Source of the DNA: a virus
Taxonomy: Duplodnaviria; Heunggongvirae; Uroviricota; Caudoviricetes
IMG/VR virus record: IMGVR_UViG_2606217106_000005
Coordinates: 1 to 11,921 of that record
Strand: one strand, 5' to 3'
Length of the DNA stretch: 11,921 bases
The notes below the pieces were generated by a model. That model saw nothing but the letters and a program-made list of their open reading frames with translations, was not told the origin of the DNA and made no database searches. Position numbers and translations under genes: made by a program. This document shows positions 157 through 11,921 of the stretch, in pieces (the first letter of the stretch is position 1; every line of letters starts with the position of its first letter).

Positions 157-1275
157 TTAAATAACCAACTTAACCCATTCCTGACCTCGGGTATCGTTAT
201 AGCGATCGGTGGTAGCCTGGACTTTATGTCCCAGTAATGTTTTTGTATCGACACCCTGTGCGCGGTACAACCGTTCTGACAGGGAGCGTTGTTCATGAAA
301 TGTTGGCGGTGTTTTTCCTGCTGGTGGAATTATTCCAGCCAGATCTCGCGCTTTGGCGAAGTAATCGCTCAGGTTGTCTTTACTCATCGGTTTTGGTTGT
401 TTCTGGTGCCTACTATGGATTAGATATGGACTTAATATTCTGTCTCGGCACCCATCAATAACTTCTTTTAACGTTATCCCAATGGCATCACAGCGTAGTG
501 TAAGCGGTAACGCCAGGCGCATTCCGGTTTTTCCCTGGGTGATATGCAAGTGTTCGTTCCACACATCTGAAAAACGCATGTGGCAAATGTCATCACGGCG
601 CTGACCAGTAACAATCGCAAGAAGCATTGCGTTACGGATAAAGTGTTTTTCAGGCGTTGCGTTGTAAATTTTTTGCCAGTCTTCCAGGGTGAGTCTGGCT
701 CTGGTTACTTTAGGGATCGGTTTACGGGTAGCCTCCGGAGGATTCCATCCAGGAGGAACTTCTCCTGCATGCTGTGCTTCTTTATAAATATCAACCCATA
801 ATCCACGATTTACTCTCGCTGTGCTGACCATGTCTTTATCCAGCCAATCATCCAGTATTAATGCAAAGTCTCTTACTTCCAGTTCTTTCAATGGATGGTT
901 TCCCAGACGGGAAACCAGGTATGCAGCCATTCGGGCTTTTTCTTTGTGAGTTGTAGCTGCAATATCTCCATTTTTCAGTCGCGTGTCCTGTATTTTCAGA
1001 TATCGATCAACCCATGCCTTTAATCTGATACCCCGACGTTTTGTTGCTGACGGACTTTCATCAATTTTGCGCATGAAATATTCAGCTTCTGCTGCAGCTA
1101 TTCGCTGATTGGCTGTGGAAGCGATTTTTTCTGCCTTACCTTTGTCTGTTCCGAGTCCGTGAAATTTTCCAGTCACAGGATTTTTATACTGGTAGTAAAC
1201 TCTGCCAGTTCTGCGATCAAACTTTTCGTAAAGACCGGCTACGTCAGTGCTGTTTTTTCGTGGCCTCGGTGACAT
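157..1275 (-). CDS. int: Phage tyrosine integrase, lambda Int family
   Basis: 372-aa ORF. C-terminal motifs PPTFHEQRSLSERLY and LLGHKVQATTDRYNDTRGQEW align with the lambda Int catalytic HxxR box and the nucleophile Tyr region (DPPTFHELRSLSARLY / LLGHKSDTMASQYRDDRGREW). Start overlaps the 3' end of the xis-like gene, as in lambda. Confidence 0.93.
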   Translation of the reverse strand: MSPRPRKNSTDVAGLYEKFDRRTGRVYYQYKNPVTGKFHGLGTDKGKAEKIASTANQRIAAAEAEYFMRKIDESPSATKRRGIRLKAWVDRYLKIQDTRLKNGDIAATTHKEKARMAAYLVSRLGNHPLKELEVRDFALILDDWLDKDMVSTARVNRGLWVDIYKEAQHAGEVPPGWNPPEATRKPIPKVTRARLTLEDWQKIYNATPEKHFIRNAMLLAIVTGQRRDDICHMRFSDVWNEHLHITQGKTGMRLALPLTLRCDAIGITLKEVIDGCRDRILSPYLIHSRHQKQPKPMSKDNLSDYFAKARDLAGIIPPAGKTPPTFHEQRSLSERLYRAQGVDTKTLLGHKVQATTDRYNDTRGQEWVKLVI

Positions 1276-1522
1276 GAGTTAAAATCTCCTTCAGTGCATC
1301 ATCATCGCCAGTATGAATTTCCGGCGCAATTCCCGTTTCACCAGGCCCAACAAATACTGCTCGGCGATCTATCAGCCAACGCCCACGAATTTTTTGTGGC
1401 CTTGGAACGATGTATCCTAGTTTTCCGTATTTCACCAGGGTAGTGTTTGTTATTGGGAGACTGAACCGTTTTGGTTTCCACTCGTCGAGCGTTATCAGGT
1501 ACTGTTCGCTCATGGCTATCAC
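1244..1522 (-). CDS. xis: Excisionase, lambda Xis-like
   Basis: 92-aa ORF directly upstream of int and overlapping it by 32 bp. Motif YLITLDEW...GRWLI resembles lambda Xis YLTLQEW...REYLF. True start may be the internal Met (MSEQYL, codon at 1511-1513). Confidence 0.75.
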   Translation of the reverse strand: MIAMSEQYLITLDEWKPKRFSLPITNTTLVKYGKLGYIVPRPQKIRGRWLIDRRAVFVGPGETGIAPEIHTGDDDALKEILTHVTEATKKQH

Positions 1523-1574
1523 TCCGGAACGCGCCAGTTGCAGAATATCAACGACAACTGGCGACGGTTGAACA

Positions 1575-4046
1575 TTAAAAATCAGCCTGACTCGGGATCA
1601 GTTTTTGCCAGATAACTGAAACGTATTTTGCCTGGTAACGGGCGTCATCAAGTGCATTATGGCGCTCACCTTCGAATGGAATAGCCGTTCTGGCATCGAA
1701 GTCTATGGCTTTCCCCAGCTCAACGATTGTGCGTACATCGCGATCGTTGTAGTAACGCCACGGGCAGGGGATCCCCTGCCGTTCGTATGAACGGCGCAAA
1801 ATCGTGTTGTCGAAGTTGGCTCCATTTCCCCAGACCTGAACAAAAAATTCACCGGAGTTTTCGTCGATAAATTCCCGCAATTGTAACAGTGCATCATCTA
1901 ACGGGATTTCATCGGTCATAATGGCAGATTGCGCTTCGCGTGATTGCTTAAGCCACCATTTAATGGTGTCCCGATCAATGACTCCGCCAGCAGTTTCCAG
2001 ATCGATAGTCTTACTAAATTCCGGTCCCATATCTCCGGTTTGCGGATCGAAAAATATTGCACCTATTGAGATGATCGGGGCATCAGGATTTTTTCCCATG
2101 GTTTCAAGGTCGATCATTAGATGGTCACACGTCCTGCTGGTGGATGTGATTTCTTGATGACCGTTCACCTTAATTGAGTGATCTGCCGTCTCGCCAGTTT
2201 CATTATCGCTATCGTGATGCTGATTGCCGCCAGTGTTCTCTTTGTGTGGATGTTCAGCGCCTTCCATTTCCTCCGGATCATCTTCCTGAACTTCAACCTG
2301 ATACTCTTCATCGAATGTTTCCTGGTATGTTGCGTCGCCCATCACCGCGCCACAATCAGGGCAGTTGCCGCCGCCGGTCTGACCGCAGGCGGTGCAGATC
2401 TTTTCCGGTTCCTGTTGCACTACTGGTTCAGGTTGTTTCGTTTCTGGCTCGTTTTGTTGCGTACTTGGGCTGTTTTGTTCCGCTTTCTGGTCGTTCTGTT
2501 CCGTTTCTTGCTGGTTCTGGTTCACAGAATCGCGGGTCTGGATCCCATTAACCCATTTCGGATCATTCGGGTCGCTAATCCCTTCAACAAATTCACCACG
2601 TGATACTGCAAGCAGTTCATCGGCGTCAGGCTGGCTGATATTGGCTGCCTGCATAATTTTGTTTACTTCGTCAGCGGTAACTTTTACTGACCCTGGTTGT
2701 GCGGTCGTGTCAGATGCACCAGTATTTTGTTGTGAACCTGAGTATGTACCGTTTTTGCGGGCGAAATATTCTTCTTTCGTGATTTCAGTAGCCCCAGCAG
2801 ACAGCGCCTTATCCAGACCAGAAAGTTTGTTTGCGCGACCGTATTTTTCGCCATCCTTGTCGGTGAAGAGGAAGTAGAACGGCCCCTCACGTTCTACAGA
2901 TGGTTCGACTTCCACTTTGCATTCGGTTTTTTCGTTGTCTGGAATTGCCGTTTCCACTGCATCAGTTTCTGGTACTGGCGACGAGAGAGTATCAGTTGCG
3001 CTCTGATTTGTTCCTTCATCTTCAAACACGCCCTTTGTAGTCAGGTATTCAGTAATGTATTTGTTCAGTGCCACAGGGTCTTTGTGAATGTCGATCGGAC
3101 GTTCACGGACAAGGCCAAAAATAGTCTGGCGGTCGTAGCGAAGGGCATCAGGCTGTTTGCGCATTGATGCCGAGATACGCTTCCAGTCTTCGCGGTCGTT
3201 GTCGATAACTTCATTTTTTGCCCAGCGATGGATGCTGCCGTCAATGTTTCCGGCATCCACATCACCAGGCCAGAGAGCGTAGGCCAGTTCGTCATCCAGT
3301 GTTTTCCATGTCTGCTTGTATTCGCGATGAATGGCAGCAATGACCGGGCTGATTTTTCCTGTTGAATTTTCAGTGTGCTGTTGATTGGTTCTGGCGCGGG
3401 CGAGATCAACAACAGACGTGTATTTTCCGGTTTCCTTGCGTTCACCTTCGCGACGTTTTTTCCAGATGCGCATCTCTGCCTGAATTTCGGGCCATTTGGC
3501 ACCAGGCTTACATTTATGCTTAACGCACCCGATGGCATGCAGCTTAAGCTCCGGATACATGGCGTTAACTTCTGGCATTTTCATCAACGCTTCAACGATA
3601 TGTCCGTCGAATGTTGCCATGTCTTCCTGCAACAATTCCTGTGCGTTAATAACCATATCAACGGTGATGTTTTCACATGTGTCGAACTTAACCATGAGAG
3701 CGTTCTGTACTTCAGGGGCCAGCTTGTCAAAAGTGACGTTCATCAGATCGGATTCAGTCTCAACCGGGACAAAAGAAGCAGAATCCTCATCCCAGCGGTT
3801 TTCCTGCATATATTCAGCATCCCATGAATCGAGGGCAGGGCGGGGTATGCCAGGTTTATCCTCGCAGATAATAAATTTATAAGCGCAGTCCTGAGCAGCC
3901 GGATAATGTTCCAGGAACTGCCAGTGAAATTTTGCTCGAGCACGGCGTTCGTCGCCAGCTTCAATGGCTGTGGCTACAGCCACAGCGCCTTCTTCCCTTG
4001 TTGCCAGTTCGTCAGGAATGGCGGCGCAAATAAAGACTTTACTCAT
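1575..4046 (-). CDS. Large phage exonuclease with C-terminal DEDDh (DnaQ-like) 3'-5' exonuclease domain, Cys4 zinc ribbon and acidic low-complexity linker
   Basis: 823-aa ORF with GAGG SD. C-terminal motifs MIDLETMG (Exo I, D-x-E), GNGANFDNTIL (Exo II), HNALDDARYQ (Exo III, H...D) are visible. CTACGQTGGGNCPDCG is a C-x2-C-x8-C-x2-C ribbon. Sits where lambdoid phages carry exo/recombination genes; I recall similar proteins annotated exodeoxyribonuclease VIII-like, but cannot verify. Confidence 0.8.
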   Translation of the reverse strand: MSKVFICAAIPDELATREEGAVAVATAIEAGDERRARAKFHWQFLEHYPAAQDCAYKFIICEDKPGIPRPALDSWDAEYMQENRWDEDSASFVPVETESDLMNVTFDKLAPEVQNALMVKFDTCENITVDMVINAQELLQEDMATFDGHIVEALMKMPEVNAMYPELKLHAIGCVKHKCKPGAKWPEIQAEMRIWKKRREGERKETGKYTSVVDLARARTNQQHTENSTGKISPVIAAIHREYKQTWKTLDDELAYALWPGDVDAGNIDGSIHRWAKNEVIDNDREDWKRISASMRKQPDALRYDRQTIFGLVRERPIDIHKDPVALNKYITEYLTTKGVFEDEGTNQSATDTLSSPVPETDAVETAIPDNEKTECKVEVEPSVEREGPFYFLFTDKDGEKYGRANKLSGLDKALSAGATEITKEEYFARKNGTYSGSQQNTGASDTTAQPGSVKVTADEVNKIMQAANISQPDADELLAVSRGEFVEGISDPNDPKWVNGIQTRDSVNQNQQETEQNDQKAEQNSPSTQQNEPETKQPEPVVQQEPEKICTACGQTGGGNCPDCGAVMGDATYQETFDEEYQVEVQEDDPEEMEGAEHPHKENTGGNQHHDSDNETGETADHSIKVNGHQEITSTSRTCDHLMIDLETMGKNPDAPIISIGAIFFDPQTGDMGPEFSKTIDLETAGGVIDRDTIKWWLKQSREAQSAIMTDEIPLDDALLQLREFIDENSGEFFVQVWGNGANFDNTILRRSYERQGIPCPWRYYNDRDVRTIVELGKAIDFDARTAIPFEGERHNALDDARYQAKYVSVIWQKLIPSQADF

Positions 4047-4516: not shown

Positions 4517-5005
4517 TATCGCGCCCTCAACAATGAGTTTTGTGATGCGGTGCCTGGTGCCTCCAGGTGACGTTAACCAGTTAACAATTAACGCCGGATA
4601 CAGAGAATCCAACCATAACACTGTTTTTGGTTTTAACTGTTCCGCGTGCGCTTAGCCGCATTCACCGCATCACAAAATTCACTTTAAAAAGGGCGGCAGA
4701 GCAGTCACGGAGTAAAACTGATACCGCCAAACGTCACCAGAAAATTGATAACAGAGGGCGTTGCAGCGGGGTTGTCACTTAAGCGTATGGTCAACCTGAC
4801 AACCCGGTGTCCTCAACGGGGGAAGGAATACCCCCGCCATACTTACCGCCGCGCCATTTCGCGGATTGCCACAACCAGAAGCGCACGGTCGAAGAAATTT
4901 AACGACAAGACTTATATGCAAAGGGATCTCGCCGTGCGCTTTCGTGTTATGCCCTGACTTTTCAGGGTAAATTAACCTGTGGAAACCTGTTTTTACTGGC
5001 GCTAA

Positions 5006-5245
5006 TCAGTTAGCGTTTCTGGCTAACCAGCGATGCGCGGCAGCTTCGGTTTTAAACGTTTTACTTTTGGTATACGTCATCGCGGTAAACGTGCCGTCCT
5101 GATTGGGAAACACGCCACATACCAGAGATTCGTTGTTGCCAAGCTCGATAGTATCCATGCTGACCTCATTTCCCCTTAACGCTGGGGTAGCGGAACTAAA
5201 AACCTGCTGCGCTGTTATACAAAGTGTTCCCGCCGTCATGTTCAT
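5006..5245 (-). CDS. Hypothetical first gene of the early-left operon (79 aa)
   Basis: First ORF downstream of the predicted leftward promoter; GAGG upstream of the MNM start cluster; no family recognised. Confidence 0.5.
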   Translation of the reverse strand: MNMTAGTLCITAQQVFSSATPALRGNEVSMDTIELGNNESLVCGVFPNQDGTFTAMTYTKSKTFKTEAAAHRWLARNAN

Positions 5246-5339
5246 ACGCCTCGGGCTGGCTACTTAATCCCTGACCACTGCCGGGTAACTCTAGGTATTG
5301 CCCTGTATTGTGTGGGACGGGATGGGTTGGTATGGGAAA

Positions 5340-5408
5340 ACTATAGGAAATGCCTAATTGCTTGTCAATAGGCTATGCCTAATGATTTGGGTGCGACCTA
5401 ATAGGTGA
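5340..5408 (-). promoter_or_regulatory. P_L-like early-left promoter with three operator sites (O_L)
   Basis: Minus-strand TTGACA (plus coords 5363-5368), 17-bp spacer, TATAGT (plus coords 5340-5345). Operator-like sites TAGG-N5-CCTA (5343-5355), TAGGC-tat-GCCTA (5369-5381) and CCTAATAGG (5397-5405), centres about 26 bp apart. Confidence 0.6.
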
Positions 5409-5476
5409 TGGTTTGTGGGAGAGGTAGTAGGAGTTAACTAACGGGAACTAGGAATTTCCCGTCGGACCATATAAGT

Positions 5477-5953
5477 TTAAGTTCCTGTCTTGGTGATGTT
5501 CTGGCTTTTCCGTTTTGATTCTTGATTTTTCAGATAGTTAGCTACCTTCATTTCCATTGCGGCAATGTAGGCGCGAACGTCATGATCAACCCAACTAGGC
5601 TCCGTAGCATTTCCAGATAAGAGGAAAGCCACAATTGCTCTTTTTTCATCAGAGGCGGCTTGATAAAGGCTGTTTATGTCTAAAAGTTCACTTTTTGTAT
5701 CTGAAGTGGATGGGGTTGGTATGGGGTATTCGTTAAGCCCCCAATGCTCTGGACCAACCACATCAGAAAAGAAACGCCATAGTTCTGGAAGTTTGTCTTT
5801 ACTTATCGAACCTTTCTTAATCCAGTCATGGATTGATGGTGGTTGGACTTTGAAATGACGTGCGATTTCCGCCTTTGATTTGACGGCTCCTGATGCAATT
5901 TTTTTGTTGATGGCCTGCTCTATCGCTCGGCCTAAGTCTTTACCACTAAGCAT
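5477..5953 (-). CDS. racR: Prophage repressor, RacR-like HTH protein
   Basis: 158-aa ORF between outward-facing promoters. HTH-like segment SKAEIARHFKVQPPSIHDWIKKGS. Length and N-terminus match my recollection of E. coli Rac prophage RacR; followed divergently by ydaS/ydaT-like genes, as in Rac. Confidence 0.8.
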   Translation of the reverse strand: MLSGKDLGRAIEQAINKKIASGAVKSKAEIARHFKVQPPSIHDWIKKGSISKDKLPELWRFFSDVVGPEHWGLNEYPIPTPSTSDTKSELLDINSLYQAASDEKRAIVAFLLSGNATEPSWVDHDVRAYIAAMEMKVANYLKNQESKRKSQNITKTGT

Positions 5954-5981: not shown

Positions 5982-6050
5982 TTAGGCAATCCCTACTCTC
6001 GAAGCGTTAGGCATAGCCTATTGACAATCGCATTAGGCTAAGCCTAATAT
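5982..6050 (+). promoter_or_regulatory. P_R-like early-right promoter with three operator sites (O_R), including a perfect 17-bp palindrome
   Basis: TTGACA at 6021-6026, 18-bp spacer, TAATAT at 6045-6050. Perfect palindrome ATTAGGCTAAGCCTAAT at 6032-6048 overlaps spacer and -10; TTAGGC-ata-GCCTA at 6007-6020; TTAGGC half-site at 5982-5987. Confidence 0.65.
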
Positions 6051-6077
6051 TATTGTGTGTTTTTTGGAGTTCATTCG

Positions 6078-6401
6078 ATGAAAAAAGATAACTATTCATT
6101 CAAACGAGCTTGTGCTGTTGTCGGTGGGCAATCAGCAATGGCTAGGCTTTTAGGTGTATCTCCTCCAAGCGTAAATCAATGGATCAAAGGTGTACGTCAG
6201 TTGCCTGCTGAGAGATGTCCTGCGATTGAACGAGCAACAAAAGGTGGTGTCCTGTGTGAAGAACTTCGTCCTGATGTTGATTGGACATACTTACGACGCT
6301 CGTCATGTTATTCGCAGAATATGTCGATGAAGCAACCAAATGACGAAAACGATCATACCCGAAGCATCAAGAGGCAAATGATTCATGAAAATCAAACATG
6401 A
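6078..6401 (+). CDS. ydaS: Cro-like HTH protein, YdaS-like
   Basis: ATG at 6078 preceded by GGAG (6066-6069). Motif GGQSAMARLLGVSPPSVNQWIKGVRQLPAERCPAIERAT is typical of YdaS/Cro-like proteins. First gene after P_R. Confidence 0.8.
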   Translation: MKKDNYSFKRACAVVGGQSAMARLLGVSPPSVNQWIKGVRQLPAERCPAIERATKGGVLCEELRPDVDWTYLRRSSCYSQNMSMKQPNDENDHTRSIKRQMIHENQT

Positions 6402-6881: not shown

Positions 6882-7952
6882 ATGGCTAACGCCTGGCTCA
6901 GATTATGGCATGACATGCCAAATGACCCTAAGTGGCGAACAATTGCCAGGGTGTCAGGGCAGCCAATTGCAACAGTGATGGCAGTGTATATCCACCTCCT
7001 GGTGAGCGCGTCACGAAATGTCACGCGAGGTCACATTGATGTCACGACAGAAGATTTGGCAAGTGCGCTCGACGTGACAGAAGAGGTAATTGATTCAATT
7101 TTGCAGACGATGCAGGGGCGGGTACTTGATGGTGATTTAATCACTGGATGGGAAAAACGCCAGGTGCTTAAAGAGGACAACGGCAATATTTCGCAAACCG
7201 CAAAATCTCCTGCAGAGCGCAAGAGGGCGCAGCGAGAGAGGGAAAGAAAGCGGGAACAAAATGGCGATTGTCACGGCGCGTCACGAAATGTCACGCACAT
7301 GTCACGACGAGTCACGACAGATAAAGATACAGATAAAGATACAGATCAAGAAGATCAAAACACTATGGTCCATGGCGTAAAAAACGCCACGAACCAGGCA
7401 GGGGATGTTCAGACCGTCAATCTTGGTCAGCCAGCAGGCACGACACCGGAAGCCGATTCAGCGTATGCGCTGAAAGCCGATTCGGGCGCTGTGCAGCAGG
7501 TGATGACCGCAAGGCCGGAGCAATCACACCAACTGCAGCAGCCCGAAGCCGATTCCGCCATTCAGCGGGAAGCCGATCGGGTAGTCCCGGAAAACACCGG
7601 GCAGTCTGTGGGACGAGTGGATTATCCGGATGTGTTCGAACAGGTCTGGCGGGAGTACCCGTTGCGTGCTGGGGCAAACCCGAAGAAATCCGCTTTCAGT
7701 GCCTGGAAGGCCAGATTACGCGAGGGGGTGCCACCAGAGGCCATGCTGGATGGCGTGAGGCGTTACGCAAGATACTTGGCGGCTACCGGGAAAACGGGAA
7801 CGGAATTTGTTCAGCGAGCGACGACGTTTTTTGGACCGGACCGGAATTTTGAAAACCCCTGGTTGCTCCCGGTAAGCGGCACGAACAACCAGCGTTGTGT
7901 TAATCATATTTCTGAACCGGACACCGAAATTCCGCCGGGATTCAGAGGGTAA
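6882..7952 (+). CDS. Phage replication initiation protein (replisome organizer, O-like) containing the putative origin
   Basis: ATG at 6882 with GAGG SD. N-terminus AWLRLWHDMPNDPKWRTIARVSGQPIATVMAVYIHLL resembles phage replisome-organizer N-domains. C-terminal FEQVWREYPLRAGANPKKSAFSAWKAR...WLLP resembles the conserved C-domain of phage replication proteins. Iteron clusters lie inside the gene. Confidence 0.75.
   Translation: MANAWLRLWHDMPNDPKWRTIARVSGQPIATVMAVYIHLLVSASRNVTRGHIDVTTEDLASALDVTEEVIDSILQTMQGRVLDGDLITGWEKRQVLKEDNGNISQTAKSPAERKRAQRERERKREQNGDCHGASRNVTHMSRRVTTDKDTDKDTDQEDQNTMVHGVKNATNQAGDVQTVNLGQPAGTTPEADSAYALKADSGAVQQVMTARPEQSHQLQQPEADSAIQREADRVVPENTGQSVGRVDYPDVFEQVWREYPLRAGANPKKSAFSAWKARLREGVPPEAMLDGVRRYARYLAATGKTGTEFVQRATTFFGPDRNFENPWLLPVSGTNNQRCVNHISEPDTEIPPGFRG
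7006..7050 (+). repeat. Iteron cluster 1: four TCAC(G) repeats at one-helical-turn spacing
   Basis: TCACG at 7011, 7021, 7042 and TCACA at 7031; inverted copy CGTGAC at 7073-7078; a 21-bp block GCGCGTCACGAAATGTCACGC is repeated exactly at 7276-7296. Confidence 0.6.
7271..7342 (+). repeat. Iteron cluster 2 (five TCACG repeats) followed by a 12-bp tandem duplication AGATAAAGATAC x2
   Basis: TCACG at 7271, 7281, 7291, 7302, 7312 (spacing 10-11 bp); tandem 12-mers at 7319-7330 and 7331-7342, then degenerate AGATCAAG copies; A/T-rich flank consistent with a DNA-unwinding element. Confidence 0.6.
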
Positions 7953-8663: not shown

Positions 8664-8967
8664 AATTAAAGAAATACCAGTAGTACGTGATGAATATGGC
8701 TGCTGGACGCATCCTGAATATGAAAAATTCTGTGACGGTCGGGAATATATTTCAACGGAAGAGTTTAACGCCTGGATGGAGGAAAATAATCTTCAATACG
8801 TCCTCTGCTTCAGAGATGAAGGATGTGCTGACCTTGATGCGTGTGATGCTGATATTTCTGCATGGGAACCGGAACGACCAGAGGGCAATGGATGGTTTAT
8901 TGGTTCAATACATGACACCGAAGATGGCCCGGTTTGTGTATGGCTGAGAAATAAGGCCGAAGCATAA
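8656..8967 (+). CDS. Hypothetical acidic Cys-rich protein (103 aa)
   Basis: ATG overlapping the upstream stop (ATGAATGA); GGGAGA SD; six cysteines; no family recognised. Confidence 0.55.
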   Translation: MNEIKEIPVVRDEYGCWTHPEYEKFCDGREYISTEEFNAWMEENNLQYVLCFRDEGCADLDACDADISAWEPERPEGNGWFIGSIHDTEDGPVCVWLRNKAEA

Positions 8968-9272
8968 AGGCTATAAACCGACTAACAACTAAATACTGAA
9001 GATTTAAATCAGAAACGATTTTTATTAAATCCTTAACCGGAGGGATTCTGCACCCTCAGAACATCAGGAGGCCGTCTGAAAGGGCGGAACAGATAATGCT
9101 TACGTTGAAACATTTTATCGACATACCAACATGGTTAGCCGTCATTGCTTTTGTTAAAATACACATCCACTTTTCTGTGCAATGTTTAACCACTGGTCAT
9201 ATCAAATGGCATTCATGCGAACCATGATATAGAATCATGGCTTGAGAGAGTCGATGAAAGCGCAACTATGGT

Positions 9273-9851
9273 ATGAGAGACATTGATGTAAGAAAGGCTG
9301 TGCATGCCAAGATTCTGAGAGATCATCATAAAGATCCTGACACCCTAATCATTGATGAGTTTACGATGAATCTAGGGGCTAGCAGAGCTGATATAGCAGT
9401 GATCAATGGGCTTATACATGGTTATGAGTTGAAGAGCAAGAGTGATAACTTGCTCAGATTACCAGCGCAGGTGCAACATTACTCATCAGTGATGGATAAA
9501 GTAACTTTGGTTGTCTCTGATTGCCATCTTTATGATGCTTTAAGCATAGTTCCATCATGGTGGGGGATAAAGCAAGTTACGCAAGGTGCACGGCAAGGTA
9601 TCCATTTAAAAACAATTCGAACTAGCAAGTTGAATCCACAAGTGGACAAACTTTCCTTAACAATGCTTCTTTGGAAAGATGAATTGCTTTCCCTATTAAG
9701 TGATGTAGGGGAGCTACAGAATTTGAAAAATAAACCTAAACGCGTCTTATGGTCAAAACTCGCCAATAGTATGGATGTTGGCGAGCTTCGTGAAGCTGTT
9801 CGAGTTAAACTTAAAGCCCGTAAAGAGTGGCGAGTTGCTCAACAACCTTAG
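9273..9851 (+). CDS. PD-(D/E)XK-type nuclease-fold protein (192 aa), sce7726-like by recollection
   Basis: Motif arrangement IIDEF (E29) ... RADIAVING (D40) ... GYELKSK (E52-x-K54) matches the restriction-endonuclease-like core. Putative extended -10 (TGaTATAGA, 9225-9233) upstream. Confidence 0.7.
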   Translation: MRDIDVRKAVHAKILRDHHKDPDTLIIDEFTMNLGASRADIAVINGLIHGYELKSKSDNLLRLPAQVQHYSSVMDKVTLVVSDCHLYDALSIVPSWWGIKQVTQGARQGIHLKTIRTSKLNPQVDKLSLTMLLWKDELLSLLSDVGELQNLKNKPKRVLWSKLANSMDVGELREAVRVKLKARKEWRVAQQP

Positions 9852-10908
9852 TTATGTGATGGTTTTGCCCAATCCTACGCCATACCTCTGGGCTACCAAA
9901 TTTATAGTTACCAGAGGGATTGGCTTTGTAGGCTTGATACTCGTTTGCATAATATTCTATGTCTCTATCTCCCGCACAGAATGTAGGCCCTGAATATTCT
10001 CGATGAGCAAGAATATCCTCACTATGTTTACCATATTGTTCATAACCAAAGCGATTAGCTACTCTTCCTCGAAATACCCAAAAGTCATTATCTCCAGAGT
10101 ATCTGACGCTGGCAGATACGCTAGGGAATCGCGTCGAAAGCCTATTAAAGTCGGGGTGCTGTACTCCATAATCACTATAAATCACATTTCTGGCAAGTTC
10201 TTTTCTATTCATTAAACTCTGCCATAAAATCCACTCGATTCGAGGTTGAGAATATAGACCAACAGAAATATCACTGAGATCTGTAGGAAATGAACCCCCA
10301 GAAAGAATCACTTTTCTGTATTCATTGAGGTGCGCCAGATTGTTTATCAATCCCATTGCCAAAGTATATAGTTCGCCGGAATTAATTTTATCCTCGGTTA
10401 ACTCATCTCTTAAGTCAATAATTATATCAATATTTGATAAAGGAATTCCCAGATGATTAATGTAATGCGTTATTAATTGTGGGTTAACCAGATCTAACGT
10501 GGTTAATCTCAAGCATATTTCATTCTGCATTAATTCATCAATCGCTCTTTTATAGTTAGATGGGCGAGTTGGTGAACTGACAGGAATAACTCTTATCCCC
10601 ATATCTCTAACTTGATTAACCGCATTTATTATAGGGTAATGATCTTCAGGAGAAATAAAATGCTCTTCAATTAATAATCCATCAATATAAACACCTTGCA
10701 TATCTGAGCAAGATTTTGAGACTTTCTTTCCGAACTCTATAAGAGTCTCGTTATAACTCTTTAAGGCAATACCTGAATCAGGGTCAATTGGCACTGGTTC
10801 AATTTCGAGTAATGGCAAAATTTTTGATTTCTTTTCAATGGATAGCTGCGATAAAGCTGATAACTCAGAACGTTTCGCTTTCAGAATAGGAATATATGAA
10901 ATTGTCAT
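9811..10908 (-). CDS. Beta-protein / sce7725-like family protein (365 aa), function unknown
   Basis: Long ORF with AAGG SD 8 nt upstream of ATG. N-terminal MTISYIPILKAKRSELSAL matches my memory of the conserved start of this family. No Walker or other catalytic motifs recognised. 3' end overlaps the convergent 192-aa gene by 41 bp. Confidence 0.7.
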   Translation of the reverse strand: MTISYIPILKAKRSELSALSQLSIEKKSKILPLLEIEPVPIDPDSGIALKSYNETLIEFGKKVSKSCSDMQGVYIDGLLIEEHFISPEDHYPIINAVNQVRDMGIRVIPVSSPTRPSNYKRAIDELMQNEICLRLTTLDLVNPQLITHYINHLGIPLSNIDIIIDLRDELTEDKINSGELYTLAMGLINNLAHLNEYRKVILSGGSFPTDLSDISVGLYSQPRIEWILWQSLMNRKELARNVIYSDYGVQHPDFNRLSTRFPSVSASVRYSGDNDFWVFRGRVANRFGYEQYGKHSEDILAHREYSGPTFCAGDRDIEYYANEYQAYKANPSGNYKFGSPEVWRRIGQNHHITKVVEQLATLYGL

Positions 10909-11339
10909 GTTAATACCTTATACAGAATCAATTAACAATTAATGGTTCTTCGGACATTGAAATTTATATCGCAAAAATTGGCAAACTCTCCTCGACTACT
11001 CACTTGTGGGTATCCTGGCGTAAAAGGAATGACTTGGCAATACCCGGTGTGATCATAAGTCATTGAAAATGATCATTTTTATCAGTCTTTCTTCCATGAT
11101 GAATGCTAATGCCATTTGATTTGTTGAGGTGAAAACTGTTAAAAATCAAAACGATGTAATTGAAATGAACGTTCGGTAGCATTCACGCTTTAAATGTTTC
11201 TTTTGTGCTGATTGGATGAATTTGGGTCACTTCTGATGAGAGATGTTGCAGGAAAAGAAGTTGGCATTGATCTATTGGATAGTTAGAATTACTGCGGGTG
11301 CTTGAGGCTATCTGCCTCAGGCATGAACACCAAAAGGCA

Positions 11340-11420
11340 GATAGAGAAAAGCCCCAGTTAACATTACGCGTCCGGCAAGACGCTTAACATTAATCTGAGG
11401 CCAATTTCATGCTTTGCACA
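11340..11420 (-). ncRNA. Candidate Sok-like antisense RNA of the hok locus (approximate)
   Basis: Inferred only from the canonical hok/sok organisation (antisense RNA opposite the hok mRNA leader/mok start); no clear promoter or terminator could be pinned down by eye. Confidence 0.25.
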
Positions 11421-11465
11421 TGTAGGTTAGCCTCTTACGTGCCGAAAGGCAAGGAGAAGCAGGCT

Positions 11466-11621
11466 ATGAAGCAGCAAAAGGCGATGTTAATCGCCCTGAT
11501 CGTCATCTGTTTAACCGTCATAGTGACGGCACTGGTAACGAGGAAAGACCTCTGCGAGGTACGAATCCGAACCGGCCAGACGGAGGTCGCTGTCTTCACA
11601 GCTTACGAACCTGAGGAGTAA
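11466..11621 (+). CDS. hokD: Hok-family type I toxin (HokD/RelF-like), 51 aa
   Basis: Translation MKQQKAMLIALIVICLTVIVTALVTRKDLCEVRIRTGQTEVAVFTAYEPEE has the Hok signature (single TM helix, LTRK..LCE.R) and matches my recollection of E. coli RelF/HokD. GGAG SD; in-frame upstream ATG at 11409 gives a 70-aa mok-like extension. A 9-bp inverted repeat (11308-11316 / 11336-11344) lies in the leader. Confidence 0.85.
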   Translation: MKQQKAMLIALIVICLTVIVTALVTRKDLCEVRIRTGQTEVAVFTAYEPEE

Positions 11622-11921
11622 GAGACCAGGCGGGGGAGAATCCCATAAGCGCTAACTTAAGGGTTGAACCATCTGAAGAATGCGACGCCTCGGTGCCTCG
11701 TTAAGACGATGCCTCGCGTTCTTCAATTGCGTTTTGTAGGCTGTCAGGGATACTGTCCCACGAATGGCCACCTGTAAGCTCCAGATGACCATTTTTGTTA
11801 TTCTCCACAACGAGTTAGTTCTTCTTTTCGGATCCGGCACTTCTGGGGGGGGAATCCAGCGATGGCTGGATTATGTCGTCAATTAAAAATGCGGCGAGTA
11901 GATTAGCAAATATCCACGCTT

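Follow-up and report, generated by a model that had tools for sequence, protein, structure and literature searches.

The gop-beta-cII locus of the satellite P4, reportedly described by Ghisotti and colleagues in 1990, carries beta (P4 positions 651-1718, plus strand) and cII (1746-2540, minus strand), both downstream of gop. This locus confers protection from lambda and P1 (Rousset et al. 2022, PMC9122126), and phage protection is known for the three-gene form of P4 only (PMC9122126). A second described system, PD-Lambda-2, is composed of a HigB-like A and an Xre-peptidase B component and has no cII-like nuclease (Vassallo et al. 2022, PMC9519451). In the literature on PF14350 and on the sce7726 family we found no functional study of the two-gene form, which is the form present in the DNA analysed here.

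As judged from its sequence, the cargo block described in this work is related to the gop-beta-cII defence system of P4 but lacks gop. P4 and the window (by which we mean the whole stretch of DNA analysed, 11,921 nucleotides) have in common a PF14350 beta-family protein and a cII/sce7726-family protein encoded by convergent genes, a cII promoter of the extended -10 type (TTGCTATAAT in P4), and the location of this cargo in the variable hotspot of a temperate element. The differences are also evident: the window has no gop, protein identity is 23-28%, the cII-like protein has 192 amino acids against 264 in P4, the two genes overlap by 41 nt whereas a terminator separates beta and cII in P4, and the host element is a lambdoid prophage and not a satellite. 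The likeness to PD-Lambda-2 is in the beta-family protein, which matches the PADLOC PD-Lambda-2_C models (1.8e-41); neither the A nor the B component is present in the window.

Two further groups of elements are relevant to a short motif which is found twice, in inverted orientation, around these genes. Sigma-70 promoters of the extended -10 (TGn) type with operator palindromes occur in phage morons and in toxin-antitoxin or defence cassettes. Like these, the window has a TGnTATA(A/G)AAT element with a weak -35, 40-50 nt upstream of a start codon and placed within a palindrome with 7-bp arms, for which an operator role is putative. The terminal repeats of IS elements and MITEs resemble the window in having short inverted copies which bracket a gene-bearing segment; unlike them, the arms in the window lie inside the mobile unit and not at its ends, and a target duplication, a transposase and further genomic copies are all lacking.

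The cargo block and its prophage

The DNA surrounding the block is that of a Rac-like lambdoid prophage of E. coli, with genes for an integrase, an exonuclease, DicF, YdaS/YdaT, replication proteins and hok/sok. In relatives carrying a different cargo the common flanks stop at 9087 and resume at 11284, and the sequence in between is a discrete cargo block (Table 1); it occupies a lambdoid hotspot bounded by a conserved junction element on the left and by hok/sok on the right. The junction element is common to a prophage with a different cargo (L003), is found in diverged form in L034, and has no unusual RNA fold.

Table 1. Position of the features of the cargo block and its flanks in the window.
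Feature	Position	Strand	Evidence or remark
Conserved junction element, prophage backbone left of the cargo slot	9024..9087	+	94% identity to L003
Cargo block, 2,196 bp, with both genes and both motif copies	9088..11283		exchanged as a unit
Left motif copy ATCAAATGGCATT, -35 region and adjacent upstream bases of the predicted cII-like promoter	9201..9213	+	promoter scan, conservation
Palindrome CCATGAT-ATAGA-ATCATGG (CCATGATATAGAATCATGG) enclosing the extended -10	9222..9240	+	
cII-like gene, 192 aa, sce7726 / phage P4 cII family	9273..9851	+	NCBIfam NF033832 1.7e-56; PADLOC 'cll' model 2.4e-28
beta-family gene, 365 aa, PF14350	9811..10908	-	Pfam 3.8e-52; PADLOC PD-Lambda-2_C 1.8e-41
Right motif copy ATCAAATGGCATT, 200-212 nt upstream of the beta start	11108..11120	-	
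hok/sok module, right backbone flank of the cargo slot	11296..11471	+	Rfam sok 119.8 bits
Hok/Gef ORF	11409-11621		

Matches to the block were found in 93 of the 5,426 E. coli genomes, all 93 with a place covering at least 80% of 9088-11283; coverage is 99-100% in the E. coli matches listed. Identity is at least 99% in 92 of these genomes and 96.9% in the remaining one. The prophage is found, for instance, in E. coli 2013C-4991 and O111 strain 11128. The block is also present in a single plasmid record and a single phage record, Rac-SA53. Other copies of either spacer, meaning the intergenic sequences upstream of the two genes, were found neither in the 5,426 E. coli genomes nor in the PLSDB plasmids or the 50,697 phage records.

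The insertion sequence events seen in the cassette are IS1 insertions and one inversion by an IS1 pair, none of them at the motif arms. In Rac-SA53 an IS1 has inserted in the cassette with an 8-bp duplication (AAACATTT) at 9108-9115. The single rearranged locus (L028) was inverted by the IS1 pair and not at the motif arms, and recombination between the arms was rejected on the basis of this locus.

The genes between the motif copies

The block contains the beta-family and the cII-like genes only. Within the block there is no gene for a DNA-binding regulator; there is no gop upstream of beta, and between beta and hok no ORF exceeds 43 aa and none is conserved. Orthologous cassettes are likewise composed of two genes without gop, and the convergent arrangement of the pair is found in 199 of 201 loci.

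The cII-like protein has 28% identity to P4 cII. The family alignment shows no variation at D40, E52 and K54, which fits its prediction as a PD-(D/E)xK-type nuclease. Its structure model is poor (pLDDT 62.5) and gives weak matches to the FAN1 nuclease and, for the C-terminal half of the protein, to SAP domains. The beta-family protein has 23% identity to P4 beta; its confident structure model (pLDDT 93) has a TIM-barrel-like fold with no close solved relative. Searches of the PDB with the sequences of both proteins gave nothing significant.

The inverted motif pair and its chance expectation

The initial annotation had drawn attention to a 13-mer upstream of the 192-aa gene and its exact reverse complement upstream of the 365-aa gene, and both positions (9201-9213 and 11108-11120) were borne out. 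So was the distance of 60-72 bp between the left copy and the 192-aa gene, whose ATG is at 9273; the right copy is 200-212 nt upstream of the beta ATG at 10908. Each copy has the same orientation relative to its own downstream gene. No further copy of ATCAAATGGCATT with up to two mismatches was found in the whole window.

Without gaps the pair can be extended to 15 matches in 16 nt (9198-9213 against 11108-11123), in agreement with the annotation. A further homology, said to continue across a 6-bp AGCATT insertion in the right copy, was rejected, as the flanks beyond the 16-nt core score like shuffled sequence (downstream p=0.33, upstream p=0.60). The sole downstream element common to both copies is the 7-mer ATCATGG, which occurs four times in the window against 2.2 expected and is not over-represented. 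On the left it forms one arm of the inverted repeat CCATGAT-N5-ATCATGG, present as the annotation had it.

How unusual the pair is depends on the sequence considered. For the whole 11.9-kb window, 88% of dinucleotide shuffles hold at least one exact 13-nt inverted repeat, and the window itself has others, evidently fortuitous, at 671/8201 and 1844/8574. For the two intergenic regions alone a 13-mer is found in only 0.26% of shuffles, and local alignment of the two cassette-specific spacers gives p=0.0085. The repeat is locally unusual, yet this rarity is not compelling after allowing for the look-elsewhere effect, since the match was drawn from a larger search space.

The left copy is probably part of the cII-like promoter

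Upstream of the cII-like gene a promoter scan recognised a promoter-like site, ATGGCA-18-TAGAAT, at 9206-9235. A more natural reading of it would be an extended -10 promoter (TGATATAGAAT) with TG-A-TATAGA-AT at 9225-9235, TG being at 9225-9226 and the hexamer either TATAGA (9228-9233) or TAGAAT (9230-9235). TATAGA lies 40 nt before the cII-like ATG, so that TGn and a TATAAT-like hexamer at a plausible distance, as in sigma-70 extended -10 promoters, are all present. The element TGnTATA(A/G)AAT is common to cII-like orthologs and P4 cII, while the palindrome around it is specific to the E. coli alleles.

Conservation of the left copy could be followed in related cassettes. It reads ATCACATGGCTTT in an Enterobacter locus (L053) and a metagenome locus (L032), with 81% and 79% protein identity, and ATCACATGGTATT in L052, with 78%; in all three it is 11-12 nt upstream of TGCTATAA. 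Thus two diverged lineages (78-81% protein identity) retain 11 of the 13 positions and the spacing to within 1 nt, while the spacer bases match at 4 of 11 positions only and the flanks are not alignable. In the 96.9% E. coli allele the left copy has no change in 13 positions and the -10 palindrome is unchanged, and of the eight bases between them four are substituted (9214, 9217, 9220 and 9221), as one would expect if a -35 and a -10 element flanked a free spacer. In more distant orthologs, which are found in hotspots of the P2-like, P4-like and other kinds, an A-tract stands where the motif would be.

From its position and its conservation the left copy is best interpreted as a predicted promoter element of the cII-like gene. 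We know of no regulator consensus that fits ATCA(A/C)ATGG(C/T)(A/T)TT among those compared by eye (IHF, CRP, sigma-54 and lambda CII). The IHF core WATCAA does fit the motif, but TTR stands at the wrong spacing; for sigma-54 the GG/GC spacing is wrong, and a lambda CII site, TTGC-N6-TTGC, is absent.

The right copy varies between alleles

Promoter scan and inspection found no -10 at promoter spacing after the right copy. In the 96.9% allele the copy is degraded to ATTAAATAGCATT by two changes (11113C>T and 11118G>A), and the neighbouring positions 11099 and 11124 are also changed. The right spacer of this allele has about 22 changes in 375 nt (~6%), against which 2/13 in the motif is not significantly raised, only two alignable alleles being compared. 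Nearly all 93 E. coli genomes have the major allele, in which both copies are perfect.

Motif states were scored in 64 fetched loci with at least 96% identity, some contigs being fetched twice. Both copies are perfect in 53 of these; seven have a perfect left and a degraded right copy (ATTAAATAGCATT), in three the left copy is perfect and the right was not recovered, and a single locus has the left copy changed to ATCAAATGGTATT (C>T) with the right one perfect. Strain C311 has the ATTAAATAGCATT allele, and APEC-O117H42 has ATCAAATGGTATT. Beyond these alleles, the 72% lineage (L053/L032) has no such right copy upstream of beta, and in the other distinct variants whose two upstream regions were both available the longest string common to the two regions is 7-11 nt, which is the background level. 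In many orthologs beta is preceded by a canonical promoter of their own, TTGACA-N17-TAnAAT. As a pair, therefore, the motif is not conserved in orthologous islands, where the right copy is missing.

The right copy appears to be a match peculiar to one allele lineage, free of detectable constraint and presumably without function. The proposal that the copies are promoter elements consequently divides: it holds for the left copy, which is in the -35 region and conserved in diverged lineages, and fails for the right copy, which has no -10 and is not conserved.

Other readings of the sequence around the copies were examined as well. Near the right copy there is a Fur-like box that fits well (15/19), but it is not conserved across orthologs. 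Small ORFs over or near the copies (9096-9227, 43 aa; 11060-11182, 40 aa; 10932-11063, 43 aa) were rejected: the two which cover the motif copies read the motif in different frames, and in the 96.9% allele the start codon at 9096 is lost (9098G>T) and the ORF 10932-11063 has a 2-nt deletion. A role at the RNA level was also rejected, as the Rfam matches in the whole window are sok and DicF only and the folds of the cII-like leader (z = -0.67) and of the junction element are ordinary.

Discussion

The explanation to which we give reasonable, though far from full, confidence is that the two copies are not equivalent, the left one being part of the cII-like promoter and the right one an unconstrained match found in one lineage. 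The left copy would fill the -35 position, 11 nt upstream of the extended -10, and the palindrome around the -10 may act as an operator. The right copy, lying in a long AT-rich spacer 200 nt upstream of beta, would be either a fortuitous match or a short sequence of recent origin in the major E. coli allele. Since related cassettes have the right copy in mutated form or not at all, it is probable that the pair neither serves both genes as a common control site nor marks the termini of a mobile element, the two functions proposed for it in the initial annotation.

Of the alternatives, the one that survives best, and which we still regard as rather unlikely, is that one regulator, encoded by the host, the prophage or the cassette, binds both copies in the major E. 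coli allele and coordinates the two genes. The local statistics of the pair are unusual, both copies are similarly oriented to their genes and both are perfect in the 53 major-allele loci; moreover, the left copy is conserved although ATGGCA makes a poor sigma-70 -35, which would suit a site where an activator or repressor binds over the -35. It is on account of the local rarity (~0.3%) that we leave some probability to a site shared in the major allele alone. Co-control of both genes by one site is however not supported by the comparison of alleles, since the right copy has two of 13 positions changed in the 96.9% allele, the left copy has one change in another allele, and the 72% lineage lacks the right copy, with no shared motif in the other distinct upstream variants. 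In addition, the distances to the start codons are very unequal (72 against 212 nt), the right copy is without a -10, and the block is without a gene for a DNA-binding regulator. If this reading were nevertheless true, a toxic nuclease, for example, could be balanced against its partner.

In a related and improbable version, the 13-16-bp copies of the major allele would be paired sites for a single factor, perhaps the cII-like protein itself with its weak SAP-like matches, which bridges or jointly gates both promoters of a gop-less beta/cII defence pair; the left site would then also serve as the -35 element.

We consider it quite improbable that the right region arose as an inverted duplicate of the cII-like promoter and has since decayed, with an ancestral divergent gene upstream of beta as one conceivable source. 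The 15/16 match of the core would agree with such an origin, as would an ATCATGG half-site 7 nt after the right core and an TGATAAAAAT element further on. Set against this, the flanks are no better than shuffles, the 7-mer is not over-represented, and no remnant ORF is present, the 43-aa ORF at 10932-11063 carrying its 2-nt deletion in the 96.9% allele.

It is highly improbable that the arms are what remains of the terminal inverted repeats of a small mobile cassette which brought both genes: the sole support is the geometry of inverted copies bracketing the genes, and this reading was ruled out because the exchanged unit extends 113 and 164 nt beyond the arms, the bases outside them (CTGGTCAT and TTGTTGAG) share no direct repeat and thus no target duplication, and the block has no transposase or recombinase, to which are added the lack of any other copy of the spacers in E. 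coli genomes, plasmids and phages, the lack of such arms in orthologous cassettes of P2-like, P4-like and other phage hotspots, and the retention of the left arm with its gene as a putative promoter element.

With the inequivalence of the two copies as the preferred explanation, the motif pair itself is of little importance, as it fails as a paired element when related cassettes are compared. The left copy and the palindrome mark the predicted promoter of the cII-like gene and are of use for its annotation. In the hotspots of lambdoid, P2-like and P4-like elements the beta/cII-like pair, convergent and overlapping at the 3' ends, is widespread as a two-gene module.

Gene orientation and IS1 insertions in the cassette

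In 199 of the 201 fetched loci carrying both the cII-like gene and beta, the two are convergent, at identities down to 37%. As judged from the ends of the tblastn alignments, the two genes overlap at their 3' ends in most of the 201 loci, the overlap in the window being 9811-9851, and in the clade with 51-56% cII identity the overlap is replaced by a small gap. The pair is found in lambdoid, P2-like (gpA-portal) and P4-like hotspots.

The cassette has been hit repeatedly by IS1. In addition to the insertion in Rac-SA53 (Table), one IMG/VR contig (L028) carries an inverted pair of IS1 copies (4695-5464 and 6907-7676), by which the segment equivalent to window 8778-10223 has been inverted and beta split.

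Table. Features located in the window and in the compared locus L002 (Rac-SA53)
Feature	Position	Remarks
Fur-box-like site	window 11065-11083	157-175 nt upstream of beta; consensus match 15/19
Perfect 14-bp palindrome	window 11066-11079	AAAATGATCATTTT; within the Fur-box-like site
Second TGATCAT	window 11045-11051	
IS1	L002 2018-2783	8-bp duplication AAACATTT, equal to window 9108-9115, just 5' of the left motif copy
YdaS/Cro-like gene	window 6057-6401	adjoins the repressor-like ORF
DicF RNA	window 4691-4742	minus strand

Probable prophage immunity region and right end of the window

The repressor-like ORF (5477-5953, minus strand) is flanked by the arms of a 21-nt inverted repeat (5362-5382 and 6007-6027), composed of TAGGC...GCCTA units around TTGACA. 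These arms look like operators of the OL/OR type belonging to the prophage immunity region. At its right end (11630-11921) the window shows a match to the region of IS421, an IS4-like element, in strain 2013C-4991, and therefore prophage homology ends at 11644.

Upstream regions of beta and of the cII-like gene

The Fur-box-like site upstream of beta is the sole one of its kind in the window, and a comparable site arose in about 0.5% of shuffles of the spacer upstream of beta. It is identical in the E. coli allele with 96.9% identity to the window, and contains one of two GATC sites lying 25 nt apart. Among orthologs Fur-like matches are inconsistent, with 16/19 in Dickeya, 14/19 in two others and background values in the remainder.

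A 12/13 match to the 13-mer motif of the window, ATCAAATGGCATA, occurs within the adjacent HEPN (RiboL-PSP-like) gene of the Enterobacter locus L053 (2255-2267), 670 nt upstream of the locus' own promoter copy, and also in the metagenomic locus L032; it is probably due to chance.

Proximal to the promoter of the cII-like gene, window 9231-9251 (AGAATCATGGCTTGAGAGAGT) is similar to the P4 gop leader (NC_001609, 219-240; AGAATTCGTGGCATGAGAGAGT), with p of about 0.002 in local alignment. This sequence similarity hints at a common ancestry of the regulatory DNA of P4 gop and of the window cassette, which is devoid of gop. A 5' leader, absent from the window allele of the cII-like gene, is conserved among its orthologs on P2-like and P4-like elements (L045, L046, L080, L082, L140 and others), where it spans approximately -75 to -1 and reads GATTTAAAGTYYRCGRCYTCAAAAA...GGATAAAAAACGACCAA, 3' of TGCTATAA; this leader could be an RNA or a regulatory element.
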